Virus record (IMG/VR): IMGVR_UViG_3300043607_000039
Location: 1-64,000 of that record
Source of the DNA: a virus
Length of the DNA: 64,000 nt
Direction: 5' to 3' (one strand)
In this document: positions 10,901-57,853 of the stretch, piece by piece
Layout: each line of letters begins with the position of its first letter
Position numbering within the stretch: position 1 is the first letter of the stretch
Notes under the pieces: generated by a model
What the model was told of the DNA's origin: nothing
Database searches by the model: none
The model's input: the letters and a program-made list of their open reading frames with translations, nothing else
Position numbers and translations under genes: made by a program

Positions 10901-13900
10901 CAGCCGGTCCAGGAACTGCTTAGCGTCATCAGGGGAGTCGGCCGTGTAGACCCGGTCCACCTGGTCCAGGTTGGCGGGACGTCCATGGGCGGCCGACCAC
11001 TTGAATCGCACGTTGTCCCGAGCCTTGCCCCAGTTGGACTTGGGGTTCGCAACAGTAGCTGGCGGCTCGAACCGAGGTGTGCTCGAACCGCTGCCGTCCT
11101 TCGGCAGTGCGTTGCGACCAATGCCTGCGAACTCTGGCTTTGCTGGTACTTCGCCGGCCTGGTGCTGGCGGTACCTGTCCATACGCCAGGTACGGATTTC
11201 CTTGCTGAGGGCGTCGTTGTTGCCCGCCTCAGGGTCGAGCTTCCACATGCTGTAGGCGCCGTCGCGGCTCTCGTGGTACCGGCGCAGGATCTTGCGGATC
11301 TTGTCACTGGCGCGCGGCTCACCGTCGGAGATCTCCCGGAACGCCTCCGCCAACTGCTCCACGGCCGACTTGCGCTCATCACCGTCGTTGACCGACTCGG
11401 GGCGACGAGCCAACGGGATCCGGTTCAGATCCTCGATCAGCTTCCGGGCGAGCGGAGGTGTGTCCTCGGGCAGGTCCGGCACCGGCCGCTCAGGGGCATC
11501 CATCTTGGACAGAGCCTCGTCGTACAGCTCCCGGATCGCCGGGTCTTGCTCCTCCAGCCGCATCAGGCGCAGTTCGTCAACAGCCCTCTGGCTGGCCTCA
11601 GGGTCGCGTGAGTTGGGGCCGCTGTAGTCAGCCCGCATGTCCATGACCTTGTTGGCGGAGCCGTTGCGGCCCCTGTGGGCCAACCGCTGAGCCAGCTTCA
11701 TGGCCGGGGAGTCCCCGTGCATGATGCCGCCATCGCCGGTGGAGTCACGGGTGAGCTTCACGCTGTCCCGGGTGAGCTTCTCGCTTTCGTCAACCGGTCG
11801 ACCAGCTAGCCGACGGAGGTCCTCAGCGTCCTGCGCCTCAAGCCGGTCCATCTCGGCTTGGACGTCCGCCTCTTCCAGCATTCCATCGCCGTTACCGAGC
11901 AGGTACTGGCGAGCACGCTGAGTTTCCGGTGCCTGGAGGTCGGCAGCAGTCGCCTTCTTGGCTGCGGCCCGAGTGATCTTGACTGGACGCTCAGGGGCAG
12001 CAGGTGTCGCCTTCGGCCGCTCGAAGTTGAGGGTACGGAGGATGGTGTCGTTGAGGTCCTCGTCCTTGACCGCAGTCATGTTGCTCATACCCAGGCGCGA
12101 GCCGACACGACGCCTCTGCTCGGGAGTGAGGCCGTCGAGCCACCCCGGAATGCGGTATCCAGTGCCAGCTTGGCCACTCCTACTGATGCGCTCAGCAACG
12201 GCATCAGCGTCACGGTCGGCCTTGTTGCGAGGCTTAGGAACGGCCTCGCTGATCCTCTTCCGTGTCTTTTCCTGGAGACCGGCCGCCGACTTGAGCTTTA
12301 GTCCAGCCTCGTTGACGTGGGGCGTTTCCCGGTCGTAGCCAGCCTGACCCTCGGCCTCAAATGCGCGACCCCGACGGGCGATGGCTGCGTCCAGGGCTTC
12401 GCGTAGTTCACTGACGCTCTGTCCAGGCGGGGGCTCGTAGCCTCGTTGCCCCGGCTCGAACTCGCCCATGGTCGTGGTGTCACGACCCTCCATCCAGTCC
12501 TTGGCCTGCTGGAGAGTCGGGAATGAGGCCTTGCCGCCCATGTCAGCCTTGTAGGCCTTGTAGGAGTGCTTGGGGTTGTCCTCATCCGGTGGGAACTCGG
12601 TAATGTAGCCCAGATCCGAATTCCGATAGAACGTGATGTCCTTGATGAACCCCTCGCCGGGCTCAACTGACCATTCAACTTCCTTGGCGGCCGGAGCCGC
12701 CTTCTTGGCACGACCAGTTGCCTTGGTTGGCGGGGCGCTGATCCGCTGAGAGGGCTTGCGCAGGACCTTGAGCTTGTCCCGCAGTGCGGCCCACCGGCTG
12801 CCCTCGGCAACCAGTGCAGCCTCTTCACGGTCGCGCTGGGCCCAGTACTCAGGCGGCTGTGGAACGAGCCGACTGTCGCGGTCCTCGCCGAGCTGCCGCA
12901 GGATCATGGCCCGGTAGAACGGGCTCGCGGCACCGTTGACGTACTGATCAATGTCGCGAGCGATGTCGCGAGGGCTGACGCCCTCATCGAGTTGCTTCTG
13001 GTAACCCTCCAGTCGAGCCTTGTCCCGAGGCGTGAAGTCCTTCTGGCCATCGGTCATCTCGTCCAGGTCGAAGGTCCTAATAGGAGCTTCCACGGCCGGC
13101 AGCGGTGTGGCCTTCTTGGCTGGCACTTCCTTCTGCGGCAGGACGCGGGCCAACTGGCCCTCGGTACTGGTGTCCGCCTTCTTGGCCGCCGCAATGTCCC
13201 GACGAGCCTGGGCCACGGTCCGCTTGTCGCCAGGCGCCTCGGCAATGATCTTGCCGCGGTTCAAGATGACATACTGGTCCTTGGCGCCCTCCGCCGGGCA
13301 ACCAACACACTGGCTGCCGCGAGGCACGTGGATGGCGTCGTAGCCACGAGCCATGGCGTAGCGGCCGATGTCGTTACCCAGCAGCTGCATCTCTGGACTG
13401 TCTTCATCCAGCGTTGCGACGTAGGCGTTGTGCTCCTCGATCAGGTCCGGCAGCTCGGCGATCTTGGCGTCCTTCGCCAGACCGTATCGGGCCACTGCGC
13501 CCTCGGTCAGGTCGCTGTACCCGGTGGCGTGCTGCTTGTTCTTCGTCATGTAGGTGCCGTTGCCGAAGGAGCCGTTACCCATGTGGTAGCGGCCCTCACG
13601 GAACTCGTCATGCACCTCAGAGGCGGGCTTGCCTTTGAACTGCTCACCAAAGCCGCCATCGCGGCCGGCGGTGTCGATTCCCCGGTAGAGGATCGTGCCC
13701 ATGTCCTTGCGACGGGCCTCGAACTCGTCCCGGCTGACTACCTCCGGTAGAGCGTCGAATCCTTGACGCTCGGCCAGCTTCTCGCCCAGCAGGTCCCCAC
13801 CGCGGTCGGTCTCAAGCTCCTTCGTGAGGCCACTACCCCAGCCGGCGCGGCGACGGAAGTGTGGATCGGCGATGGCTGAGTCCACGATGGAGCGAGCGGT

Positions 13901-16900
13901 ACCCGCGCCCTCGGTGAGGTCCTTTGTCTCCACCTTTTTGGCCCGCAGGTCAGCCTTACGGGCGGCGTCAGCGTCGGCAAAGTGCTGAATGATCGCGGCG
14001 TGGATCGCCTTCTTGTCCGACTGGGCCAGTCCCTTGATCCCGAGGCCATTGCGCCCGGCCAGACTGCGCCAGGTCGCTACCGGAAGGTCGCGGTACTGGG
14101 CCCGGCCAGTTTGGGCCTGCTTCAGCTGCTTCTCGACGTTGTCCAGGACCCGCTGCCGAGCCGCCGGACCGTGAGCGTCGACCAGAGCCTGCCGAAGGTT
14201 GGTCGGGTTGACGATGCCGTCGACAACAACGGCAACACTGCGATTCTGGGCCTCGATCTCAGTCCGGTTCTTGATGCGGTCGGCGTCCTGCTTCGCGTGG
14301 AGCCGATCCATGCGGGCCTTCTGGGCCGGGATGGCACGAACTAGGGCCGCCTTGCCGTCGTCGGTCAGGATTGACTCGCGCTTGCCGCCACGCACCCGCG
14401 TCTTGACCAGACCGAGCTTCCGGAGCTGAGGTGGAATCGGGTCTGCATCCCGTAGTACCTCGCCACCGTCAGGGTTTTCCTGGTGGTTGCGCATGAGCCA
14501 GTGCTCGTCCTTCATGGACAAGCCTGGCGTGCTGGGAACGAAGTCCCTTTTGGCCTGAGACTGGACGGCGGGCGCTGCCTTCTTGGCCGCCGCCCGAGTC
14601 ACCTTGGTCGGAGTCGGGGCCTCAGTTTCGCCACGGTCATGCTTGGCGAGGGCCTCTTCCAGATCCTTCCGGGTCATCCGGCTGCGGCCAGCGATCCCGG
14701 CCTTCGACGCCCGGTCCCGAAGCTCGGCCAGTGGGGTCTGCTTCGCTGCTGCGGGAGCAGTCTTCTTCGCTACCCGTGCTTCGTCCCGCTCCAGGAGCGC
14801 GGTGTCGCGTGCCTTGAGTCGGTCCCGCTCCCATTTGTCGATCTCGGCCTTGCGGCCCTCGTACAGGCTCTGCCAGCCCTGGTACTTGGTGTCCTTGCCG
14901 CCGGGGCCAAAGATCCAGCCACCCACTCTGCCCTTGTAGTCGTGCTCAGCACCCCAGGCCTTGGCCCGAGCGATCGGGTCCTTGATGGGGCCACGCGGGA
15001 TCCGTGCAGCAGCTGGTGCCGCGACCTCCGGCTCCTCGACCGGAGCGAAGCCGTTGTTGATTTTCTCCTTGATCTGATCCACGTTGGACCGGTCCTGGCC
15101 ACGGACACCCAGGTCCCGCGCCAGTTCCCGGGCCTCAGACTGGGACAGCTCCAACGAGTCCAGGTAGTCCTGGCGCTCCTTGGTGGTCTTGCGCTCCAGT
15201 AGTGCCTTGCGAGCACGGGTCGGGATGACGTGACCAGCGACTGCCCGGTCCGGGTGCTTGGGCGTGAAGTGGCGCACGATTTTGGCCTGGACACCGGCCT
15301 CGTCGTCGCGGCCGGCGCTGACGATTCCCAGCTGCTTGGCCAGGACGCGCCACTGCGTCTTGTTCATGGGGCCCAGGTCGTCAAGGACCTTTTGGCGGGC
15401 CTCAGGAGTGGTAGCTGCGCTCAGGTCCTTGCGGATCTGGGCCGGGTTCTTTGGCCGAGTGACCCGACGTGCCCGTGGAGCGGGACCAGCAGGCGCCGCT
15501 TCCTCTCCCCCTTCACCCTTAGACATGCGGATGACGTCGCCACGACCCAGGGCGTCGATGGGCTTGCCCTGACGGTCCAGCAGCGTGCGGCCGACAACCT
15601 CGCCAACAGTGTGCTGTTCCCGGTCTTCGCCCATGACCACATCGCCAGGGCGGATGTCCCGGCGAGACACAACGTCCGGACCGGTCTCCAGCTCGTCGGC
15701 CAACTGGCGCGACTCAGGGGTGTCCAACCCCCGTAGCTGCTGAACAGCCGCAGCCTTGGTGATCTTCTTGGCGCTTAGGTCATTGAGTACGGTGTCGTTT
15801 TCGTTGAGCTGTGCGGCCGGGGCACGGGCAGGGGCGGCCTTCTTGGCCGAGGTGCGACCCTCCCGCTCCATGATGAAGGTCTGCTGGCTCGGCAGACCTA
15901 TCCCGCCGACCGCGTTGTTGGCATTATCGACCCGAACCTCGTTGCCGTCGTCATCATGACCAACAACAACCTTGAGCCGGTTACCAACCTGCTCGACCCG
16001 GTCAACGGTGATGGGCTTACTGCCACCCTGCCTGACTGCCGGCCGCCAGCGTCCATCCTCGGCTGGGGCGACAAGAACCCGGTCACCCTTGAGTAGCTTC
16101 CCGTTCGGGATCTTGCCATTGTCTCGGACTCGGCCCTCACGAGAAGGCGCTGCCACAGTTGGGGCCGCCGCCTTGGCTGCCCGCAGGCGTGGAGCCTCGA
16201 CACCTTCACCACCCGCCGCGGTGCGGGCCTCCAGTCGACGCAGCAGTGAAGCCTTGTAGTCCTCGTCGGTCAGTCCCATGGCGCCCGGGACCTTGATGGA
16301 GGCGCTGTCCTCCAGCTCCTTGCGGTCGGTCGGCAGTCCCAGAGCCTTGAGCCGGTCGTCCACTTCCGCGGCCGTACGCCGCGGGGCCGCGGCCTCGGTT
16401 AGCGCCTCGCCGAGATTGGCCTTTTTAGCTGGCGCCGCCTTCTTGGCTCCCTTGGTCGCCTTAGTCGCCTTGGCCGGAGCTGCCTTGGCTGGAGCCGGGC
16501 GACCGGCATCGCGGGCACGGATCTTGTCGGCCAGCTTCTGAAGCTGGTCGATCCGATTCTTCTCCCGGTCGTGAGTGCGAGCCTTGCCGCGCCAGTAGCT
16601 TTCGGGAAGGTCGACCCCATCCCGGCCCCAGTCTCCATTGAGGATGGTGTTCTGGGTCCGCATGTCCCCGACGAAACGCTCCAGCATGTCGGCAACCTGC
16701 GTCGGCGACGATCCTGTGTTCAGTCGGGCCTGGGCCACGTCGGAGTACGCGGCCAGGTCGGCCATGTTGATGCGCCCGTCGCGAGCTAACTGCCGAACGT
16801 CCACATGGTCCGGACCGCCAGGACCGAAGCGCTCGTTGGCCTCGCTGTCCTTACGTAGACCCTTGGCCTCGCGGGTCATGGTGCGCAGCTGCCGACGTTC

Positions 16901-19900
16901 GGCTCGCTTGGCCTGATCGTCTACATCATGAAGGGCGATGTAGCGCATCAGGTCGGTGAGCTTCTCGTCCTGGTCCTTACCTTCGATCTGGATACCCAGG
17001 GTGTCGGCCGCCTTGCGCAGGTTCTCCGGCGCCAGGGCATCGCGCTGGTCATCGGTGAGCTTGTCTTGGGAGACCTTCTTCGGCGGGGCCGCCTTCAGGG
17101 CCTTGGCTGCTGCCCGCTTGATGATGGGACGCTGCGGACGAGGCGCTTCGGAAGTTTCTGGAGCCCGATCCCGGTCATGGACCGTGCCCGACACCTTGAC
17201 CCGCTCGATGGCCCGGTACATCCCGGCTACATCGTTGATCATTCGCTTGCGCTGGGCGGCCTCAGCCGGAGTCAGGTCCTTCTCCCGCTGACCGGTCAGG
17301 TCGCGATAGTCGGCTTCCTTGCGACGACGGCTGATCCGGGCACGAAGGTGCTGGAGCGCGTCGGACTTGGACACCTCGCCGTCGCCAACGGCCTGCACCA
17401 GCTGGTCAGGGGTCAGCCTGGTGATACCTTCCCGGTCGAGCTGGGGGACGGTCACCTCAGGAGCGGCGGCCGCGGCCTTAGCTGGGCGCAGACGTGGGGC
17501 GTCCTCCGCCAGCTCACGTTCGAAGCCGCCGACCTCCATGCGTCGGAGGAACTCGGCCTTGTACTGATCGCTGGTCATCCGGGATTCGCCCGGGATCTTG
17601 CCCGAGGCGATGCCCTTCAGTGCGGCACGTGAGGTTGGTAGACCTAGAGCCTTGAGCCGGTTGTTGACGTCAACCGGAGACCCGGCCTCAACGGAGCCCT
17701 CACTGCGACGGGTAACGATCTGCTGCTTCAGTGCTTCCTTGTTGAATCGGCGCGGACTCTGGACACCCTCCTTTTGAGCAGCATCCAGCAGTTGGGCGTA
17801 GGTCTTTCCTTCCAGGTCCGCGTCACGGTCCGATGTGGAGGGAGCCGCTGCCTTTGCTGCCTTAGCCACCTTGGCAGGTGCTGCTGCCTTGGCCACCTTG
17901 GCAGGTACCTTGACGCCGCCCTCAGGCTCCAGGATGAAGGTCTGAGAGGCGCTCGGGTGCAGCTCGACCTGGTCACCGTCATCGTTCCTGAGGGTCAGGG
18001 CAACAGCCCGGGGCCGGCTGCTGACGCCTTGGCCAACGACCTCGAACGGGGTGACGTTGGTTTTGCGTGTGGTCGGGCGCCACTTTCCATCGGCACCCTT
18101 CTCCAGCAGGACCCGAACGCCAGGCTGTAGTCGACGGGCGGTGAGCTTGCCCTCGGCGGTGCCGGCCGCCTTCTCGACCGCGGGTGCAGCCTTCTTGGCT
18201 ACGGCAGCCGGCTTTGGAGCCGGTGTCTCAGGGAACCCCTTCTTGGCCTCGGCCTCCGCGGCCTTGCGAGCAGCGCCAGGCGTGGGGTAGGCACCACCCA
18301 CCGGCTCGCTCAGTGTGCTCTTCCGATCGGTCCGGACGACCTGGAAGCCTGTCTGTCCTGGCCGCCTGCGGATCTCGTACTTGACGTCAGGGTCGTTAGT
18401 GTCGACCGCGATCTTGCCGGCCGAAATCGGCGACAGGAACTCGGCCATCGCGTCACGCCAAGCGGCGTGGGTGGTGCGACTCGGCTCCTCGGCCACGATC
18501 TCGGCGACTCGTGCCCGGATCAGTTTCTGCGCTGGCTCCGGGAAGTCCTCGAACAGCTTGTTGTCATTGCGGGTGGAGGGCCGTTGCCCCACTGCACGTG
18601 CTGCCTTGACTGGTGCTGCCTTAGCCGCCTTGGCTGGCGCAGCCTTCTTGGCCGCAGGTGCTGACTCGTCACCCAGCCACACTGCGGTGTTGGGGAAGCC
18701 GGCAAGCCAAGAGCCATCGTCACGAGTGATCTTGATACGGTTGCCGTCGCGCTCGACCTTGGTGACCTTGCGCGGGATCCCGAGTTTGGACTTGTCGGAG
18801 CCGGAGCCTCCGCGGACGACGTCGCCGACCTCCACGTTGGTCATGCTCTTGCGCTGGGTGCCGTTCGCCAACGGCGGTAGGAGCTTGGCAGCTGGAGCAG
18901 CCGCGCTGATCTTCTTGACCGGGGCAGCCTTGGCGGGAGCAGCCTTCTTGACCGCGGGTGGCCTACGACCCATGGCGATGTAGACCTGATCGATGTCCTT
19001 CTTTTGCTCAAGCGGGCTCAGCTCAGCGAACGGCTTGTCCAGCTCTCCGCCCTTGACCCAGTCCTCTTCGCCATGCCGCGACAGCCACGCGGCGTGGACT
19101 GCCTCACCCACCTCCAGGCGGGTCTTCTCGTCGGTCAGGTCGACCGTGCCGCCGTGCTTCTCCAGAATGTCCTCAACGACCTTGGCCGCGTCCCGGTTCT
19201 CTTGCTTCCAGTCATCGGGTAGCTCTGCGTAGGGCGTGTTGTAGATGTCGACCTGATCGGTGCCGTGCGCCTCAATCCACGCCTTGTCCGTCGTGGGCTT
19301 GAGTCGCTCCGGCGGACCTTCGCGGCCTTCCTTGCCGGCGGCGCGCTCCTCCATCCACTGCTGCTCGAACGTCTTACGCCAGCCCTCTTGAAGCCGGGCC
19401 GCTTTCGTCTCGACGCGACGTGCACGGGCACGTTCAGCTGGAGTCGACCTCGAAGCGACAGCCTTGGCGGGAGCGGCCTTCTTGGCTGGAGTCTCCGGTG
19501 TGGGCTCCCTAACCGCAGGCGCTTCAGTTGCGGCTGGGGTGGCCTTAGCTGGGGTGGCCTTCTTTGTGCCGCCGGGTGGTGCAACGCGCCAGGGGATTCC
19601 AGCCTTCTCCAGCGCGGCAATCGTGGCCGGTTCAGGCTCGCGAGGGAACAGGACCTCTTCGATGTCATCGTTGCTGACGCCATCGTGGATCTGTGCCTCA
19701 ACGTAGGTCAATTGCTGGAACTGTGGGTCACCAAGGTCGTTGTACTTGGCCGCCGCCGGCTGAGCCGCACGGTAGTCGGGATTGTCGATCGGCATGGGGG
19801 TGAGTTCCTTGCGCCGATCCAGTGAGTCACCAGCGGAAACCGTCGTACGTGGACGGACGCTGTCCTTGAGGACAACCCGGATGTCGCCGTACTGGTCCAG

Positions 19901-22612
19901 CTTCCCTTCGCTGTGCTCACCGTCTAGTCCGCGCGGTGCCACATATCCATAGATAGGCCTGCGTTCAGCAGGAAGGTCCTTGGGGAGGCCAAACGCCATT
20001 TCTTCGAAGTCTGCACGCAGGGCCTTGTCGACGTATCCGCCGTCACTTGTTCCAGTCTCGTGCTGAGTCTTCATGCGACCGCTGGCGAGAATGTCCCGAA
20101 GGCTTGACTCACTGCTGCGGCGAACGACGATCGGCTTGCCTGGGGCCGTAGCTCGGCGAATGGCCTTTGTGGCCTTCTCCTGCATCTCGGGCGTCGCGCC
20201 CGCGTACTGGTCGACCCACGTCTTCCGGTCGTTAACTTGTTCCTTCACCAGGTGGTTGTAAATTCCCCGGTGCTCCTCGAAGAACTTCTTCAGTTCAGGA
20301 ACCCGACCAAAGAGCAATTGGGCATGCAGGTTGTCGTCGAACTCGTCGCCAATAATCACCGGCGGCCGTTCAATGCGGATCAGTTCACGCATCTTGTCGA
20401 TCTCGGCCTGGGGCACGCCCTGCTCGGCTGCGATCCTGTCAAGATCGAAGGCGGGTGCAGTGCCCGCCTTACGTGGCGCCGGAGCCGCCTTGGCCGCCTT
20501 CGCCGGCTCGGGTGCGGGAGCCTTCTCCGCGGCCGGTAGGGACTTCGTGGGCGTCTTCTTCGGCGACTTGACCGGGGTGGGCTTCTGGGGGCCCGCCTCT
20601 GCCAACTCGTCCGCGACGCCGTCAAGTTCGTCAGCCTCGCTCAGGCTAATGTCACGCAGCTCGGTCTCGCTGCGATCTCCCTGATCGTCCAGGTCCCCCA
20701 GTGCCAGGCCGTTTTCGCGTAGGTCCTTCGCCCGGACGCGGAGCCGGTCGATGACAGCGTCACGATCCTTACCGGCCGACAGGTCCCGCTTGGCTCCGGC
20801 AATCGCCTCGTCGCCGGCCACAGTGCTGGTCCGGGCACCGCCGAGGGTGTCCAGGTCGACCCGGCGCTGCTCCTCGCGCTCCTTGCTCTGCGCGATCATG
20901 CGCCGTTCGACGTCGGCGTCTGGTGCCGCAGGAGCTTCAGCTGGGGCAGTCTTCTTGGCTGCGGCCCTGGTCTCCAGGCGCTCACGGGCGACAGCTACTT
21001 CCGGTGCCTCGGGAGCGGCAGCCTTCTTGGCTGGCGCGGCCTTGGCCGCCTTCGCTGGAGCTGGGGCCTCAGGAGCCTCGGCGGGAGTCGCCTTGGCGGG
21101 CGCGGCCTTGGCTGCCTTCTTCGCTGCCTTCTTGGCGGGAGCTGGCGCCTCTGGGGCGCCTCCCTCCGCCTCCTGCTTAATCTGTCGCGCCTGCGACTGG
21201 ATCCGGGTCTCGTCGTCGTTGCGCGGGTAGCCCGGTTCCTTGCTCAGTTCCGCATCTCGCCGGACGACCGCCTTCTTCTGGACATCGGTCATGTCGGCAA
21301 TGGAGTCAGGTGCGCGCTTGACAGCCCGCTTCTTTGGAGTCGGGGCCGCAGCAGCAGGAGTTGTCCCGGCACCAGGCTGCTGGTCCATGAGCTGCTTGAT
21401 CAGCTGCTGGTTCAGCTTGATCTGCTCCAATTGCGACTTGGTCAGTTGCTCCTGGGCGCGCATGACGCGCTCCTGCTGCCGGTCAACGATGGCCTGCTGG
21501 GCGGCAACCCGCTTCTGCTCCTGCTCAAGTCGAGCCTCTTCTGGGCTCAGGACCTGCTTGGACGGGCGAGGTGTGATCTTCTCCCGGGGGGCGATTTCCT
21601 CGCCGGGCTGCACGACCTTGCCCGCGCCGAGAGGGACCTCTCCCCCGGACTCCTCGATCGCCTTGGCTGGGCTCGGGCCAGGTGGGCCGGCAGGCGCAAC
21701 AGGAGCTGGCGTATGAGCCGGAAGTCCCTGCTCGCCAGGGGCTGGCGTACCCGACGGGGGCAGCGGCTTCGGGATCGGCTGCCCGTCAGCGTCCAAGCCC
21801 CGCTTGGCCAGCTCCTCGGGAGTGGCCTCAATGGCCGGAGACTTCTCGCTCTCGGGAAGTTCGGCGCCCAGGCTCCGGGGAGCAACACCACTACCCTGCC
21901 TTGGCATGGCCGTGGCGTAGATGTAGGTACCGCCGTGCCCGTCCTTCTCCACCTTCATGATCTGAAGGGGCTGATCCTTGTCCAGGATGACCGACGTGAA
22001 GCCATCGCCAACAACGACGGCGTCAGTGCCGCGAGGGGCCAGGATCGACCAGGTGACATGGGGACCTGTGGTCTGGCGGGGTGAGCCGAGGTTGGTGGCC
22101 GAGAACGCTTTGTTGCTGACGAGCTTGCCGGTCCACTCCTCGATCTCGTCCATGCGCTCAGGAGGTAGGCCAAACTGCTGACCGTCGCCAACCCAGGTGA
22201 GGAGCATGTCCGCCGGCAGCGGCTCCATCATCGCGCTGATGTCGTTGATCTCGTCAGCGGGACCTTCGACCTTGCCCTTGGCGCCCTTGTCCTTGGGGTC
22301 ATAGCCGGCCCACATGGACTGGGTGATGCTGTCGTAGCCCTCAGGCGTGTAGAACTTTGTGATCGACTCGTTCTGCCGCTGCGTACGGGGCTTTGTCTTT
22401 ACCGCCCGCAGGTAATTGCCGGCGTGCTTATCGGACCTGAACTCAGCGGCATCGAAATGCTTCAGAATTCGGTCGACGATACCCATAGCGCGAGCACCAA
22501 GGCGCCAGCTATTCCGGAACCGACCGTGGCTGTCCCTTGGGTGCAGCTCGGCTTTCCAGTTCGCTACGTCGACTGCAAAGTCCGACGAACTGTCCCACGG
22601 GTCGACGGCCAC
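4955..22612 (-). CDS. Giant (5,885 aa) polyvalent protein: degenerate ART, 2x DUF3626-like, RyR-like, ART, GrpE-like, PI3/4K/HipA-like kinase, GNAT-like, zincin metallopeptidase
   Basis: HPRDSHGRF N-terminal motif; RPIYGY/YVEAQIH twice; LYRG..GNGTY..GYDAI..YVILN; DRHNNN..FDN; HEFGH..YATSDPQEDYAES; PAKKA linkers. Confidence 0.85.
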   Translation of the reverse strand: MAVDPWDSSSDFAVDVANWKAELHPRDSHGRFRNSWRLGARAMGIVDRILKHFDAAEFRSDKHAGNYLRAVKTKPRTQRQNESITKFYTPEGYDSITQSMWAGYDPKDKGAKGKVEGPADEINDISAMMEPLPADMLLTWVGDGQQFGLPPERMDEIEEWTGKLVSNKAFSATNLGSPRQTTGPHVTWSILAPRGTDAVVVGDGFTSVILDKDQPLQIMKVEKDGHGGTYIYATAMPRQGSGVAPRSLGAELPESEKSPAIEATPEELAKRGLDADGQPIPKPLPPSGTPAPGEQGLPAHTPAPVAPAGPPGPSPAKAIEESGGEVPLGAGKVVQPGEEIAPREKITPRPSKQVLSPEEARLEQEQKRVAAQQAIVDRQQERVMRAQEQLTKSQLEQIKLNQQLIKQLMDQQPGAGTTPAAAAPTPKKRAVKRAPDSIADMTDVQKKAVVRRDAELSKEPGYPRNDDETRIQSQARQIKQEAEGGAPEAPAPAKKAAKKAAKAAPAKATPAEAPEAPAPAKAAKAAPAKKAAAPEAPEVAVARERLETRAAAKKTAPAEAPAAPDADVERRMIAQSKEREEQRRVDLDTLGGARTSTVAGDEAIAGAKRDLSAGKDRDAVIDRLRVRAKDLRENGLALGDLDDQGDRSETELRDISLSEADELDGVADELAEAGPQKPTPVKSPKKTPTKSLPAAEKAPAPEPAKAAKAAPAPRKAGTAPAFDLDRIAAEQGVPQAEIDKMRELIRIERPPVIIGDEFDDNLHAQLLFGRVPELKKFFEEHRGIYNHLVKEQVNDRKTWVDQYAGATPEMQEKATKAIRRATAPGKPIVVRRSSESSLRDILASGRMKTQHETGTSDGGYVDKALRADFEEMAFGLPKDLPAERRPIYGYVAPRGLDGEHSEGKLDQYGDIRVVLKDSVRPRTTVSAGDSLDRRKELTPMPIDNPDYRAAQPAAAKYNDLGDPQFQQLTYVEAQIHDGVSNDDIEEVLFPREPEPATIAALEKAGIPWRVAPPGGTKKATPAKATPAATEAPAVREPTPETPAKKAAPAKAVASRSTPAERARARRVETKAARLQEGWRKTFEQQWMEERAAGKEGREGPPERLKPTTDKAWIEAHGTDQVDIYNTPYAELPDDWKQENRDAAKVVEDILEKHGGTVDLTDEKTRLEVGEAVHAAWLSRHGEEDWVKGGELDKPFAELSPLEQKKDIDQVYIAMGRRPPAVKKAAPAKAAPVKKISAAAPAAKLLPPLANGTQRKSMTNVEVGDVVRGGSGSDKSKLGIPRKVTKVERDGNRIKITRDDGSWLAGFPNTAVWLGDESAPAAKKAAPAKAAKAAPVKAARAVGQRPSTRNDNKLFEDFPEPAQKLIRARVAEIVAEEPSRTTHAAWRDAMAEFLSPISAGKIAVDTNDPDVKYEIRRRPGQTGFQVVRTDRKSTLSEPVGGAYPTPGAARKAAEAEAKKGFPETPAPKPAAVAKKAAPAVEKAAGTAEGKLTARRLQPGVRVLLEKGADGKWRPTTRKTNVTPFEVVGQGVSSRPRAVALTLRNDDGDQVELHPSASQTFILEPEGGVKVPAKVAKAAAPAKVAKAAKAAAPSTSDRDADLEGKTYAQLLDAAQKEGVQSPRRFNKEALKQQIVTRRSEGSVEAGSPVDVNNRLKALGLPTSRAALKGIASGKIPGESRMTSDQYKAEFLRRMEVGGFERELAEDAPRLRPAKAAAAAPEVTVPQLDREGITRLTPDQLVQAVGDGEVSKSDALQHLRARISRRRKEADYRDLTGQREKDLTPAEAAQRKRMINDVAGMYRAIERVKVSGTVHDRDRAPETSEAPRPQRPIIKRAAAKALKAAPPKKVSQDKLTDDQRDALAPENLRKAADTLGIQIEGKDQDEKLTDLMRYIALHDVDDQAKRAERRQLRTMTREAKGLRKDSEANERFGPGGPDHVDVRQLARDGRINMADLAAYSDVAQARLNTGSSPTQVADMLERFVGDMRTQNTILNGDWGRDGVDLPESYWRGKARTHDREKNRIDQLQKLADKIRARDAGRPAPAKAAPAKATKATKGAKKAAPAKKANLGEALTEAAAPRRTAAEVDDRLKALGLPTDRKELEDSASIKVPGAMGLTDEDYKASLLRRLEARTAAGGEGVEAPRLRAAKAAAPTVAAPSREGRVRDNGKIPNGKLLKGDRVLVAPAEDGRWRPAVRQGGSKPITVDRVEQVGNRLKVVVGHDDDGNEVRVDNANNAVGGIGLPSQQTFIMEREGRTSAKKAAPARAPAAQLNENDTVLNDLSAKKITKAAAVQQLRGLDTPESRQLADELETGPDVVSRRDIRPGDVVMGEDREQHTVGEVVGRTLLDRQGKPIDALGRGDVIRMSKGEGGEEAAPAGPAPRARRVTRPKNPAQIRKDLSAATTPEARQKVLDDLGPMNKTQWRVLAKQLGIVSAGRDDEAGVQAKIVRHFTPKHPDRAVAGHVIPTRARKALLERKTTKERQDYLDSLELSQSEARELARDLGVRGQDRSNVDQIKEKINNGFAPVEEPEVAAPAAARIPRGPIKDPIARAKAWGAEHDYKGRVGGWIFGPGGKDTKYQGWQSLYEGRKAEIDKWERDRLKARDTALLERDEARVAKKTAPAAAKQTPLAELRDRASKAGIAGRSRMTRKDLEEALAKHDRGETEAPTPTKVTRAAAKKAAPAVQSQAKRDFVPSTPGLSMKDEHWLMRNHQENPDGGEVLRDADPIPPQLRKLGLVKTRVRGGKRESILTDDGKAALVRAIPAQKARMDRLHAKQDADRIKNRTEIEAQNRSVAVVVDGIVNPTNLRQALVDAHGPAARQRVLDNVEKQLKQAQTGRAQYRDLPVATWRSLAGRNGLGIKGLAQSDKKAIHAAIIQHFADADAARKADLRAKKVETKDLTEGAGTARSIVDSAIADPHFRRRAGWGSGLTKELETDRGGDLLGEKLAERQGFDALPEVVSRDEFEARRKDMGTILYRGIDTAGRDGGFGEQFKGKPASEVHDEFREGRYHMGNGSFGNGTYMTKNKQHATGYSDLTEGAVARYGLAKDAKIAELPDLIEEHNAYVATLDEDSPEMQLLGNDIGRYAMARGYDAIHVPRGSQCVGCPAEGAKDQYVILNRGKIIAEAPGDKRTVAQARRDIAAAKKADTSTEGQLARVLPQKEVPAKKATPLPAVEAPIRTFDLDEMTDGQKDFTPRDKARLEGYQKQLDEGVSPRDIARDIDQYVNGAASPFYRAMILRQLGEDRDSRLVPQPPEYWAQRDREEAALVAEGSRWAALRDKLKVLRKPSQRISAPPTKATGRAKKAAPAAKEVEWSVEPGEGFIKDITFYRNSDLGYITEFPPDEDNPKHSYKAYKADMGGKASFPTLQQAKDWMEGRDTTTMGEFEPGQRGYEPPPGQSVSELREALDAAIARRGRAFEAEGQAGYDRETPHVNEAGLKLKSAAGLQEKTRKRISEAVPKPRNKADRDADAVAERISRSGQAGTGYRIPGWLDGLTPEQRRRVGSRLGMSNMTAVKDEDLNDTILRTLNFERPKATPAAPERPVKITRAAAKKATAADLQAPETQRARQYLLGNGDGMLEEADVQAEMDRLEAQDAEDLRRLAGRPVDESEKLTRDSVKLTRDSTGDGGIMHGDSPAMKLAQRLAHRGRNGSANKVMDMRADYSGPNSRDPEASQRAVDELRLMRLEEQDPAIRELYDEALSKMDAPERPVPDLPEDTPPLARKLIEDLNRIPLARRPESVNDGDERKSAVEQLAEAFREISDGEPRASDKIRKILRRYHESRDGAYSMWKLDPEAGNNDALSKEIRTWRMDRYRQHQAGEVPAKPEFAGIGRNALPKDGSGSSTPRFEPPATVANPKSNWGKARDNVRFKWSAAHGRPANLDQVDRVYTADSPDDAKQFLDRLSDQKLEDIADAASIPVLSSMDRDTRIDRIIKGIREPEGGAPAAPMKAAAPAAPQAVRAVPAGGPSTDLSREDQARVRRLIRQDPQIYATVQDRHGRVATSGNLGKEDAEWLDDVHKREPAFVEHVAQETQIRRRLDKDAKAAGDTPAAYRAKVAARLKEKFADKPIAVRVRDEDALDDILSNGRFKTQFDRGARRAPGLDSSPERRRLGEHVLGTPVDTAPDKRPVYGYVAVNGVEPALPGGRKISGISQREGQEDSLSPYGRVQVILKPDVRSRTTASVGDSLDELPFVRPSPVDNPSADSLGINKLDAMDSPDWTRSHYVEAQIHGGVTKDDIAEVVFPEQPSPAIAKKLDDAGIPYRVLGRDGETSAPSAAPVKKAAPTKKAAAPKQLTQKEAYSAPPEELAKAADEGRISRRAAAIQIRRRAGAVQTEGYSTDASDVERRRAADLETDRIRALADRVEDGDGPVVVREGTLRPGEPRKGDRELPPRPVEKADVPSESQLTQPSPDATENARKRLQAREAGARRQRAGGTAQLASELEQIIAARRNDRSQAEFRTAVADRLKKTPVGDIDNKSDHNTQGYEDLRKTLKVSDNDTAAKFQARLRKHLESRGITVDGNDGDQVTYDPDKHDLLDGASVQPGELAEIHTPGMYFNDKAPAAPAPRAGVVADPEKWNSGDGVPTSIFLGAESKLGRGVPSNSLAELDRSVRTEDQHHKVPDAYKRTDAALAGAGVGPDERPRKQLREWYESTFKENKDVTPEATESTVVTLQRPVLRSVRGGGDGDLSSRPTPTPDKPFADVETRRSVIGDNYHAGFELLRDFNSSDRAAYLTPRGLDRADTLSRKLRPNELRDVADALHLENTKGDKFDVLRNKVMKDIRRRLGIAEPFGQERREQLESKTMRELLDELPPGMKKPSSITKPQLIDMIVGDGPVGDHHVDLDPEVQALKDAFDAGLTDRSYISTGSMGQVARVEGPDGKKIIRKRMSSDWFMSGEQQADGEQLTSELGRRTGAPQAAVYRPTDRTVFMDEIQGTQAEKHTPEEIDAAVHTPEGRRMAILDAIAGNSDRHNNNWMIVDGRPVGFDNSLAFDDEPKYGPDGEILPDGNHFNDPFRAAYPYRSLETKDTMGVTLITGGQWLDRNEFTTAELTDVRKELEAMKPQFQRLDREAWYDAAHGRLEALIKRASDAPGAPGARAAKKAAPAKATTRAPRVPEGPAVAAARARLEGVDAEKKAKLTKALNRDQKAELRTLTPGQRNEYWRERLGRREVDHDTAVDRATPSDGVSAPTPAAKKAAPAKKPNVRTKAGQRQVIESAIDEALRVGDGLDGPAAAMYVDRMGGRGSPKDVLEGIRDRIRAGEATTDFDSVEYTMNRMTDAWKNNGVIDPATGRYKSPFSDDQSDEYQEFVEAKTRIRKLFTDVLDSIRASKPDGRSTESPRLREPEGPQVKLTDKATVRELAANGFDDDGQKYLSDMPEAQRQAITSAFDVDDDGKSFRVDPERSFVYKDIDGNPVIRVEGDVKDGDGGIVGGFRRVLYPATGTVHNDMFALEKAQQQQGLSTRFNDQQDRRLADLGFTRATISPAFNGGLASARRDFRWQTDRRGAAGDVPSRIGQAFSRATPEEREVLSGWLDRFVEQDMKDWPTPKEISDQGELGRSIMNGSSWSGEKQLGTGDRPKIAAPRRPSLLERIARPASSAVPASSSRAITGRLGGDRTVDSILEEDTWPQGTNVRDLTLSVGYKVGSGTAWRRNGVVYVVEHGDTPEERQRAAVGVNRLIAHANNLPPGASRYQRSYVMVQGGHPREGQWQEKWGLLGPDQEPLRTAASASFGNTIVWHDGEGSGDHLDGDLNHEFGHNVDTTSPVYGSQSAAWVKAATKSPNPNERITDFKPTKASEFESTFPRGNFTYGVTPYATSDPQEDYAESIRLYMLGVVGTGTLTNGSGWSGDVYFRDLFPERAAVLDKLFPELAEQQRADIARARG

Positions 22613-28271: not shown

Positions 28272-28294
28272 ACCCCTACGTAGGGGTGTACCCT
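28272..28294 (+). promoter_or_regulatory. 16-bp palindromic operator-like site plus -10 box
   Basis: ACCCCTACGTAGGGGT then TACCCT, 7 nt before ATG 28302. Confidence 0.65.
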
Positions 28295-31973: not shown

Positions 31974-32099
31974 CAGTTGACCACACCCCCACCTGGGGGT
32001 AACGTACGAGACGGTTCTCCTTCGCATCAGGCGGGACCGGAACGAGCAGGCCCCAGCTCCCCATCGCTGGGGCCTGCTCCTCGTTCGAGGGGGTTGGGC

Positions 32100-33061: not shown

Positions 33062-33090
33062 TTGACGCCACCCGGACGTACGGGTACGGT
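33062..33090 (+). promoter_or_regulatory. Promoter of the tRNA array with operator-like site in the spacer
   Basis: TTGACG-17-TACGGT containing ACCCGGACGTACGGGT. Confidence 0.65.
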
Positions 33091-33478: not shown

Positions 33479-33513
33479 TTCCGGGCAACCGGAGTTACTT
33501 GAGAATTCCACAG
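33479..33513 (+). promoter_or_regulatory. rrn-like boxB-boxA antitermination signal
   Basis: CCGG-GCAA-CCGG hairpin followed by GTTACTTGAGAATTCCACAG. Confidence 0.5.
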
Positions 33514-33574
33514 TGGACAGCATGTGTAGATAGAGTCCTGGCCTGTGCCATCACGGGTGGGCCAGGACTATCTT

Positions 33575-43948: not shown

Positions 43949-43972
43949 ACCCCTACGTAGGGGTGGTACCGT
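43949..43972 (+). promoter_or_regulatory. 16-bp operator-like site plus -10 box
   Basis: ACCCCTACGTAGGGGT then TACCGT, 7 nt before ATG 43980. Confidence 0.65.
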
Positions 43973-55615: not shown

Positions 55616-55655
55616 AGCAATGAATGCTAGATCAAACGCATGGGAAAATAGGGGT

Positions 55656-55820
55656 GTGGAACGTATTCCGGTCGACGAAATCCTGGCCTATTTGGAGGCC
55701 ACCCAGCCCGACCTGATGGACCCGGGTGAGGACCGGTGGGGTGGGGCCAACCTCTACGACCCCCGCCTGCTTCAAGATCCAGAAGTTGCTGGTCCCGAAA
55801 CTCTTGACACCCCCACGTAG
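55656..55820 (+). CDS. Small hypothetical protein divergent from terL
   Basis: GTG 6 nt after GAAAAT. Confidence 0.4.
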   Translation: MERIPVDEILAYLEATQPDLMDPGEDRWGGANLYDPRLLQDPEVAGPETLDTPT

Positions 55821-55834
55821 GGGTCAGGTACAGT
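55804..55834 (+). promoter_or_regulatory. Promoter with operator-like site in the spacer
   Basis: TTGACA-19-TACAGT containing ACCCCCACGTAGGGGT. Confidence 0.7.
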
Positions 55835-55840
55835 TGGTCT

Positions 55841-56430
55841 ACGCCCGGAGGAACGGTCAAGGCCGGGACGAGGAACTTGACAACTGAAGATGGCGACAGT
55901 GCTCTGAGGTGGCCCGCAGCAACGTGTCTGCTGGCCGAGAGGCCACTACACTGTCGTCTACGGACGGAGCAGCCACAAGGCCCCTCCCCAGGATCGCCAC
56001 TGAGGCGCCCGTCCTAGCCCACGTCGCCACGGGTTTTTCCTTTCTCCCCGTGACCGGCAGACCGACCGGACGGCTCCTCCTCCGGTGGGCGATGGAGGAG
56101 CAAGCTTCCCTCGGGGGGATGCGAAACAGGGCCACGGTGGAGAAACCCACCGGGGCCCTGCTTCGTGAAACGGTGCGTCGCAAGCATGGGGCGCTTCAAG
56201 CTCCCGATCACGGGAGAAAGGCGGGGACCTTGCCCGGGGTTAAGGCCCCCGCCTTCCTTGGGGGGTTGTTACTCTGCATGGACCACGGGCCGTTGGGGAC
56301 AGCGGCCTGTCGCGGAGGAACGGCCGTTCCTGCCTGGAAAAAGCGAATAAGGGTCCAAGGACCGCGCACTGGGATCCCCGGAGCACCGGAACCACTGTCC
56401 CCACCTCAACTACCTGGAGAGAGTCGAGGG
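55841..56430 (+). ncRNA. Long structured leader / candidate ncRNA
   Basis: Nested long-range stems and many hairpins; no convincing coding signal. Confidence 0.5.
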
Positions 56431-56439
56431 TTCACCATC

Positions 56440-56886
56440 GTGAGCATGTACAACATGGTTTTCGGCTCAGAAGGGCCTGCCAAGCGCGGACAAGTCCTCT
56501 TGGCCATGCTGGGTTTCACGAGCTTCACCAACGTCGGCCGGTACCGCGACGCCTGGGTGGAGACCTCGGAGGACGGCCCGATCATCGCCATCTACACCCG
56601 CAACGGCGGAGGCAACCGCGAGAGCTGCTGGCAGCCTGACGGCGCCTTCCAGAACTCGGTCGAATGTGACTGCCCGGCCTGTGTGGCCAACTACCGCATG
56701 CCCGCCCACCCGGGGTGGGCGATGGGCCGTGACGACGAGTTCGACTCCACGTATCGGACCGAGTACTTCCAGGCGCCCGCCGAGTACCTGGACCTGTTGG
56801 AGCCCGTGGCTGGCGATCCCGTCGACACTTCCCAGAGGTGGCACGAGGCCATCGCGAACCTGGACCCGGCCAATGCTAACCATTGA
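56440..56886 (+). CDS. Conserved phage hypothetical protein
   Basis: GRYRDAW..IYTRNGGGNRE..DDEFDSTY; start moved to GTG 56440. Confidence 0.7.
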   Translation: MSMYNMVFGSEGPAKRGQVLLAMLGFTSFTNVGRYRDAWVETSEDGPIIAIYTRNGGGNRESCWQPDGAFQNSVECDCPACVANYRMPAHPGWAMGRDDEFDSTYRTEYFQAPAEYLDLLEPVAGDPVDTSQRWHEAIANLDPANANH

Positions 56887-57487
56887 GGACAAGGCCTGGA
56901 TGGCAGGGGTCATTGACCTCAAGGGCCGAATGATCCGGAAGCGAAACCAAGATCGGCGCACCACGCAGACCCTGGTCTACGTGGAGAGCAAGCAGCACGA
57001 GGTCATCCGGGCGCTCAGCAAGCTCACAGGCACCAAGCCCGAGGCCAAGAAGCAGTCGACCCTGAGCGAGTTCATCAGGGTGCAGTGCAAGGAACACTGT
57101 CCCGACGCCCACATTCACGTCCGAGACGGCTGGTCCATGCCCACCACCACGCGGTGGACGATCACCGGCGGCCCGATGGTGGTCGTCATGCTCAGCTTGC
57201 TGCCTTACCTGCGGGTTGACCGCGGGTACCAGGAGGCGATCGACGCGATCATGGAGACTCAGTCGCTCGCCGGCCAGGGTGCGCATGCAATCTGGGCCAA
57301 CATCAAACGGCTCATGGATCTCGGGTGGACGCTGCCGGAGGTCTACCAGGAGCCGATGAAGGCCTGGACCGGGCTGGCTCAGGTTGGCGGCCGGCCGATG
57401 GTGGTGGCATCGGAGCCAGAACGGTTGCGTGACATCACGTTCCTGGATGACGATGAGATGATGGTCGTTGCTGCAAGGCCCCGGTAG
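56873..57487 (+). CDS. LAGLIDADG-like protein
   Basis: AWMAGVIDLKG; L.PYL motif. Confidence 0.6.
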   Translation: MLTIEDKAWMAGVIDLKGRMIRKRNQDRRTTQTLVYVESKQHEVIRALSKLTGTKPEAKKQSTLSEFIRVQCKEHCPDAHIHVRDGWSMPTTTRWTITGGPMVVVMLSLLPYLRVDRGYQEAIDAIMETQSLAGQGAHAIWANIKRLMDLGWTLPEVYQEPMKAWTGLAQVGGRPMVVASEPERLRDITFLDDDEMMVVAARPR

Positions 57488-57550
57488 CTCAGTGGATAGA
57501 GCGCCGTCCTCCTAAGACGGAAGTCACTGGTTCAAGTCCAGTTCGGGGCA
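57478..57550 (+). tRNA. tRNA-Arg(CCT)
   Basis: Loop CTCCTAA. Confidence 0.9.
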
Positions 57551-57853
57551 CGGTTGGACAAGCCGAAAAGCCTTCGGGCCGATCCCTTCGCGCCAGCCAC
57601 GTAGGTCGACGCTTCAAGGTTCTGACGACCTACGTTTCATAACTAAAACAAGAACCCCGGGCGTTTTAGCTGGTGGAGTTTCGGCCCTTAACTAAAGCTC
57701 CCCCCCACCCGGGAGCTACCCGTGGAGCGAGGCGACGGTATACGGACGCTGAGCGGTGATACGGGGCCCGGGTGGTTACAACAATCCACATTGGACGAAG
57801 GAGGTGCGTCATGACCTAGGTAGCCAGAAGTTCTGGCCTTCAGAGAGGTCGCC

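Follow-up and report, generated by a model that had tools for sequence, protein, structure and literature searches.

The stretch between positions 55841 and 56440 is a real non-coding leader, partly conserved and partly structured, which is transcribed from a conserved phage promoter ahead of a block of genes. The explanation we prefer, and to which we give roughly an even chance of being correct, is that it is a cis-acting leader combining an antitermination signal like that of rRNA operons with a new conserved hairpin module. Plus-strand transcription would then start at about 55841 from a host-type promoter with a 16-nt palindromic, operator-like site, and the sequence CUUGA(C/A)AAYU would act like the boxA of an rRNA operon. 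This motif would load host NusB-S10 onto RNA polymerase, and the termination-resistant polymerase so formed would cross 450–1100 nt of untranslated structured RNA, tRNAs and the terminator-like hairpin T, being stopped neither by Rho nor by the hairpin.

The window, meaning the whole 64,000-nt stretch of DNA that was analysed, covers the initial 64 kb of an IMG/VR virus record that is 93 kb long and has 63% G+C and about 35 tRNA genes, and the source is a tRNA-rich, uncultured, actinophage-like virus. The leader sits in an 825-nt gap (55616-56440) between the gene for the large terminase subunit on the minus strand and a gene for a 148-aa protein on the plus strand (Table 1). The terminase is at most 37% identical to those of cultured phages, and a terminase-based locus search of viral contigs gave no match. 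The terminases of relatives match only residues 1-66, about 436-656 and 669-1008 of the window protein. Two insertions were seen in the latter compared with its kin, one at residues ~67-435 (matches to LAGLIDADG and homing endonucleases) and one at ~550-668 (intein splicing domain), and TAGCAT precedes the terminase ATG at the spacing of a leaderless promoter. To the right of the leader, the rightward operon comprises the 148-aa gene, a conserved 195-aa gene, tRNA-Arg, an AAA ATPase, two ParB-like proteins and an exonuclease; the genes downstream of the leader are DNA-metabolism genes. The 195-aa protein begins with WMAGVIDLKG, which is LAGLIDADG-like. tRNA-Arg(CCT) follows the 195-aa gene in relative G006 as well, and is found further downstream in G001. 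Elsewhere in the window, a single ORF of 5885 codons (4955-22612, minus strand) has a coding-like G+C pattern.

Relatives of the leader were found by scanning the IMG/VR viral contigs with the promoter palindrome and the loop of hairpin H1, and were then extended through their records. This gave six distinct genomes including the window (W): W, G001 (the same as G002 here), G003, G005, G006 and G007 (the same as G004 here). The comparison set comprised only four to six relatives, of which two are near-identical. The gene order is the same in all six, namely the terminase gene on the minus strand, the palindrome promoter, a long gap and the next gene. What is conserved within the gap is confined to modules, i.e. 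about 80 nt around hairpins H1 and H2, about 20 nt at hairpin H5 and about 75 nt before the start codon. The leader was also observed to be a hot spot for tRNA cargo, with Val, Thr, or Met and Lys tRNAs at different insertion points in related phages, and the G007 leader has a possible 58-codon ORF. Cultured phages yielded no relative of the leader element, the only match being one of 90 nt inside the 148-aa gene, and four chance matches but no prophage copy were obtained when bacterial genomes were scanned with the H1 pattern.

Table 1. Positions of the features in and around the leader, and leader lengths in the six genomes
Feature	Position or length	Strand	Remarks
Large terminase subunit gene, 1008 aa	52589-55615	-	Divergent neighbour; interrupted by intein and homing-endonuclease segments
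Promoter	55804-55834	+	-35 TTGACA 55804-09; -10 TACAGT 55829-34; palindrome ACCCCCACGTAGGGGT 55809-24 in spacer
Palindrome copies	28272-28287, 31985-32000, 33070-33085, 43949-43964, 55809-55824 (window); 82860 (genome)		
5' hairpin CCCGG...CCGGG	55844-55867	+	CCAGG...CCTGG at the same place in G001 and G003
boxA-like motif ACTTGACAACTGAA	55875-55888	+	Conserved core CTTGA[AC]AA[CT]T
Hairpin GGCGACAGTG/CACTGTCGTC	55892-55958 (arms 55892-55901 and 55949-58)	+	Window-specific; not alignable in relatives
Pyrimidine tract TTTCCTTTCTCCCCGTGA	56036-56053	+	5' strand of the long-range stem of the earlier note
H1, 8-bp stem GCTCCTCC/GGAGGAGC, conserved loop TCCGGTGGGCGAT	56073-56101	+	Compensatory changes
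H2, CTTCCC...GGGGGG hairpin	56105-56119	+	5' arm AGCTTCCC invariant
H3, CAGGGCC...GGCCCTG	56127-56160	+	Window-specific
Purine tract TCACGGGAGAAAGG	56208-56221	+	3' strand of the long-range stem; -31.6 kcal/mol duplex with the pyrimidine tract
Hairpin T, terminator-like, then TTCCTTGGGGGGTTGTT	56218-56255	+	Window-specific
H5, GGAGGAAC GGCC GTTCCTGC hairpin	56314-56333	+	Conserved in W, G001 and G003
Pre-start block	56355-56439	+	GGTCCAAGGACC, CCGG-AGCA-CCGG (56378-89), CACTGTCCC, ribosome-binding region CCTGGAGAGAG...GAGGG (56416-30)
First gene after the leader, 148 aa, without known family	56440-56886	+	Slot empty of the 148-aa gene in relatives
195-aa gene	56900-57487		No Pfam match; conserved after the leader in four relatives
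tRNA-Arg(CCT)	57478-57551		Overlaps the 3' end of the 195-aa gene in W
tRNA genes inside relatives' leaders	L115 3247-3319; L116 779-851; L118 1570-1645; L134 2966-3202		
G006 leader	453 nt		No tRNA inside
W leader	599 nt		No tRNA inside
G001 leader	831 nt		tRNA Val(TAC) inside
G005 leader	about 850 nt		tRNA Thr(AGT) inside
G003 leader	963 nt		tRNA Val(TAC) inside
G007 leader	about 1090 nt		tRNAs Met(CAT) and Lys(CTT) inside

The leader is non-coding. From 56440 onwards, third codon positions have a GC fraction of 0.86-0.94, as opposed to 0.52-0.80 over 55840-56440, where no frame stands out. Moreover, the first residue of 13 homologues of the 148-aa protein coincides with the one encoded at GTG 56440 or lies two residues ahead of it, homologues start with MSMY at the point corresponding to this GTG, and the conserved leader blocks show 2-nt indels between genomes. 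These lines of evidence bear out the earlier suggestion that the first 177 codons of the extended reading frame do not code, and a likely over-extended frame is thereby corrected, the true start of the 148-aa gene being GTG 56440. Two candidate coding sequences, the extension at 55909-56439 and a minus-strand ORF at 55857-56183, were rejected for want of a GC3 signal; the only family match of either was a weak one to Phage_base_V (E 0.001, below the cut-off).

The 148-aa protein itself has 384 homologues, the best 120 of which were listed in the protein-library search, and belongs to no Pfam family; it contains the invariant motifs YTRNGGGNR and C..C, and homologues are also present in Streptomyces genomes. 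A search of 5 viral and 80 metagenome loci of these homologues revealed neither synteny nor leader similarity. Being widespread, not syntenic and missing from the slot in all syntenic relatives, the gene looks like mobile cargo.

The promoter has TTGACA and TACAGT elements with a predicted transcript start at about 55841, and it is conserved, together with its 16-nt palindrome, in six genomes, the window counted among them. The earlier note had called it a consensus promoter, which needs some correction: the promoter is real and present in all relatives, but with a spacer of 19 nt it is not a consensus one, and a standard promoter scan at 16-18 nt spacing gave no match. Nine close copies of the palindrome occur in the window compared with 0.95 expected, each with TANNNT beside it. 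At the copies at 28272 and 43949 an ATG (28302 and 43971, respectively) follows the -10 element at a distance of 7 nt, as in leaderless starts, and the copy at 33070 lies ahead of a tRNA array. As judged from these arrangements, the copies mark a family of phage promoters sharing an operator-like site, and the palindrome probably binds a phage or host regulator. The 16-nt palindrome ACCCCYACGTRGGGGT was seen between the -35 and -10 elements of at least five promoters, and the same palindrome occurs in viral contigs L091 and L135, in which no homologue of the terminase or of the neighbouring genes was found.

Downstream of this promoter, the core CTTGA[AC]AA[CT]T is the sole block common to all six genomes. 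The motif to which it belongs, also given as CUUGACAACU, is located 35-45 nt past the predicted start in each of the six genomes; in W, G001 and G003 a hairpin comes before it, and the 450-1090 nt beyond it contain no conserved reading frame. The hairpin shows one compensatory change between W and G001/G003; RNAalifold did not pick it up, and no consensus structure was found for the 5' 200 nt. For comparison we took the 500 nt upstream of the 16S rRNA gene from eight genomes of a class that holds a Pseudonocardiales genome. These actinobacterial rRNA leaders contain CCTTGAGAACTCAA (seven of eight) or GTTTGAGAACTCAA (the remaining one), at a distance of 163-223 nt from the 16S gene. In 9 of 10 bases the phage core agrees with CTTGAGAACT, which is present in all eight leaders, and the 14-mer CCTTGAGAACTCAA is matched at 11 of 14 positions in W and 12 of 14 in G007, it being noted for both comparisons that the actinobacterial sequence may not be that of the host. 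At the variable core position the rRNA leaders have G and the phages C or A.

The boxA consensus has been given as UGCUCUUUAACA for E. coli and AUGAUCUUUGAAA for B. subtilis, and in the rRNA operons of the latter a small hairpin is directly followed by boxA (PMC13753749). From its position and its likeness to these two consensus sequences, we read the actinobacterial rRNA-leader block as boxA. The 93-kb phage genome has 4 sites with at most 3 mismatches to the 14-mer where 4.2 are expected; because the short match alone is not beyond chance, the case for boxA is made by the six-fold conservation, the strand and the position of the motif. A second copy, ACTTGAGAATTCCA at 33497 (region 33484-33525), is located behind a small hairpin just after the first tRNA of a 15-kb array. 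Two other roles were considered for the motif and rejected, that of a second promoter, as no consistent -10 element follows it, and that of a repeated stoperator-like site, as it is unique in the genome. We infer by analogy with boxA that NusB-S10 binding and terminator read-through would occur at the phage motif.

With regard to folding, the whole 600 nt gave z-scores against shuffles of -2.5 (plus strand) and -4.6 (minus strand), and the core at 56036-56270 (about 235 nt) of -3.67 and -5.31, respectively, while the 5' and 3' thirds, with z of -0.36 and -0.53, respectively, were no better than shuffles. Accordingly, the description of the region as about 600 nt of highly structured RNA fits its central part and fails for both flanks. 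Among the 200-nt windows of the 93-kb genome, the core, at a G+C-corrected z of -3.2, comes about seventh for the plus strand; its folding is strong yet not unique in the genome. The leaders of relatives also fold better than shuffles, with z from -2.7 to -2.9. All four stems quoted in the earlier note were found in the sequence where it had placed them. The stem GCTCCTCC/GGAGGAGC shows covariation and the TTTCTCCCC tract is conserved, whereas the other two are window-specific. Alignment of the homologues revealed covariation in both H1 and H5.

In H1, four of the eight pairs change on both sides among four genomes, and every cell pairs with none breaking. In controls, 4 of 500 column shuffles reached as much, and sliding the partner left 47-55% paired. 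The loop is invariant in the four genomes while the stem covaries. With a covariance model of the block, G005 was found to have another variant of the stem, the fifth, namely GUCCCCCC/GGGGGGAC with ACAAACUUCC after it; in this genome about 550 nt of the transcript, including the tRNA, precede the H1/H2 module. G001 and G003 have GGGAAG as the 3' arm of H2, while that of W and G005 is rich in G and forms U.G pairs; these wobble pairs are allowed on the plus strand only. At H5, one position is A-U, U.G or G-C and another A-U or G-C, the U.G pair occurring in G001. The pre-start block is 81-84% identical to G001 and G003, and the gene that follows it in the relatives is a homologue of the 195-aa gene (window 56900-57487), not of the 148-aa gene. 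A pattern scan with CCCCGGAGCAC...CACTGTCCC (56376-56402, block E) retrieved G001 and G003 only.

These conserved elements have to be weighed against the possibility that the region is a passive spacer, in which tRNAs and small genes are readily inserted and whose hairpins serve only the processing or stability of a tRNA-mRNA precursor and have no part in regulation. We consider this rather unlikely. Such a spacer agrees well with the tRNA-Val, tRNA-Thr or tRNA-Met plus tRNA-Lys that occupy the leader in relatives, with the insertion of the 148-aa gene here in the window only, and with a length ranging from 453 to about 1090 nt, much of it not alignable. It agrees less well with the retention of H1 and H2 in W and G006, which have no leader tRNA, and the invariant H1 loop on a covarying stem suggests a specific ligand over a generic hairpin.

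The pyrimidine tract is conserved in W, G001 and G003 and diverged in G006, and its best downstream partner in each genome is the purine tract after H2, analogues of which are GAGGGAGG in G001, GGGGGAGG in G003 and GGGATGAGGAGG in G006. The long-range stem quoted earlier pairs TTTCTCCCCGTGA (56041-53) with TCACGGGAGAAA (56208-19). In minimum-energy folds the tract is paired otherwise, and in the window the long-range stem competes with several other pairings. No consensus structure was obtained for a hairpin that would present the tract, and such a hairpin is not in register between genomes. In the explanation we prefer, the tract, H1 and H2 together constitute a second cis element, which may be a protein-binding or processing site, or a switch based on pairing between the two tracts. 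This module is conserved in five uncultured actinophage genomes and absent from Rfam. A bolder proposal, which we put forward as doubtful, is that the module (56036-56119) represents a new class of phage regulatory RNA, either a sensor or protein-binding switch governing read-through into the replication genes or a mimic of the 16S 3' end that titrates ribosome-binding sites, working alongside a phage rRNA-type boxA antitermination that expresses the tRNA-laden untranslated RNA.

The remaining hairpins are not shared. The region 55892-55958 has no consensus structure, and its local fold is no better than shuffles. H3 does not appear in the G001 alignment, G003 and G006 have other hairpins in its place, and an exact scan of viral contigs with H3 gave no match. 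Hairpin T has energies of -25.6 kcal/mol on the plus strand and -32.7 kcal/mol on the minus strand; on the plus strand it forms a 12-17 bp stem with one or two A.C mismatches and a tail UUCCUUGG. A terminator scan flagged 56246-64, which overlaps T, as terminator-like, and canonical terminators of this genome (e.g. 59900-40 and 62229-72) have longer U runs. In G006, a 10-bp hairpin lies about 12 nt before the ribosome-binding block, and about 45 nt separate the end of this terminator-like hairpin from the start codon.

Directly after hairpin T there is a possible extended -10 element, TGTTACTCT, at 56267-75, so that the first 420 nt could be a separate RNA in this genome. Such an independent RNA, about 420 nt long and running from 55841 to ~56260, would end at T and act in trans, e.g. 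through pairing of the tract with ribosome-binding sites, and the 148-aa gene would have its own promoter. The strength of T with its U-containing tail, the candidate promoter, the tract CUCCUUUC of G001 lying in a hairpin loop of the minimum-energy fold, and the resemblance of the pyrimidine tract to the 3' end of 16S rRNA all fit this arrangement. We nevertheless judge it unlikely. Both T and the candidate promoter are window-specific, the tract-presenting hairpin is out of register between genomes, and in G003 the tract, when paired by hand, matches the ribosome-binding site of its own operon only weakly. A leader, as opposed to a separate RNA, is favoured because the G006 hairpin is too near the start codon to leave room for another promoter, and because the pre-start block is conserved whichever gene follows.

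The better minus-strand energies raise the possibility of an RNA transcribed in the other direction, such as a long leader of the terminase mRNA, for which hairpin T offers a 17-bp stem followed by UUUCU. H3 and T, both window-specific and more stable on the minus strand, are the source of these energies (z -4.6 and -5.3). No TANNNT -10 element was found on the minus strand over 55700-56440; there is none upstream of 55700 and candidates occur only within 50 nt of the terminase ATG. In relatives the terminase starts 50-80 nt from the palindrome, and the conserved helices favour the plus strand. A minus-strand RNA is in our estimation highly improbable. The plus strand is preferred because the promoter points rightward, the minus strand lacks a -10 element over 55700-56440, and the U.G pairs in conserved helices (H2 in W and G005, H5 in G001) would be C.A mismatches on the minus strand.

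The same helices bear on whether the region functions as DNA, for example as a packaging site (pac or cos), a replication origin or an operator region beside the terminase gene. Its position adjoining this gene, the palindromes, and a related contig (G002) that ends inside the leader could be taken in this sense. However, a genome end at this point was rejected, since a 100%-identical contig runs through it and the sequence is not taken up again at the start of G002. In addition, no iterons or repeats are present, and the U.G-containing helices and strand-specific motif indicate RNA. A DNA-level element therefore appears very unlikely.

No known RNA family accounts for the leader. Rfam covariance models matched only tRNAs in the window, at the gathering score or at E <=10, and no family in the relatives' leaders at E <=5. 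No Rfam 15 model of a riboswitch, T-box, RNase P, tmRNA or group I/II intron was matched, the searches giving only tRNAs and chance-level matches that differed between homologues, and ARAGORN found no tmRNA. The earlier statement that no known ribozyme or riboswitch is recognisable thus holds for both window and relatives, and the families it had proposed for checking (GOLLD, ROOL, OLE and RNase P) gave no match. For GOLLD and ROOL (Rfam RF01998 and RF03087), a phage context near tRNA genes has been described (PMC5737381). The leader resembles them as a noncoding phage RNA of several hundred nt near tRNA genes, and the setting is similar, with tRNAs inside or beside the relatives' leaders and a tRNA-Arg 1 kb downstream in the window. 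It differs in having no covariance-model match even at E <=10, in conserving modules and not a whole multi-junction fold, and in a length that varies more than two-fold.

The closest likeness to boxA-type Nus leaders (rRNA operons, lambda nut) is a short linear motif on the transcribed strand, soon after the promoter and behind a small hairpin. The phage motif also heads a long untranslated structured RNA that includes tRNAs, and its core shares 9 of 10 bases with the actinobacterial rRNA-leader block. The differences are the one core base, a match that does not exceed chance within this genome, and a phage operon in which an N-like protein was not identified. The put RNA of phage HK022 consists of cis-acting stem-loops that modify the polymerase. 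H1 and H2 are likewise adjacent conserved stem-loops, placed between an early-type promoter and terminator-like structures further downstream. They show no likeness to put in sequence, and the G005 module lies about 550 nt from the start and after a tRNA. Riboswitch and attenuator leaders also have a conserved folded domain and a terminator-like hairpin followed by a ribosome-binding site, and the pairing between the two tracts abuts hairpin T. In contrast to them, the leader matches no known aptamer, its hairpin is not conserved in G001 and G003, and the gene context suggests no ligand.

Of the two possibilities raised earlier, a new large phage ncRNA or a cis antiterminator, the second is the one that fits a leader with a conserved promoter, boxA-like motif, hairpins and a terminator-like hairpin before the first gene. 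A stand-alone large ncRNA is not supported, as only modules are kept, the length ranges from 453 to ~1090 nt with insertions of tRNAs and small genes, and two of the stems are genome-specific. We class the leader as a structured operon leader, a known kind, containing a new small RNA motif. This motif, H1/H2, shows good covariation and could join RNA family libraries. How tRNA-rich phages transcribe kilobases of untranslated structured RNA is a little-studied question. If the boxA reading is true, these phages would recruit host Nus factors as at ribosomal operons, the motif being present in this leader as well as near the start of the tRNA array.
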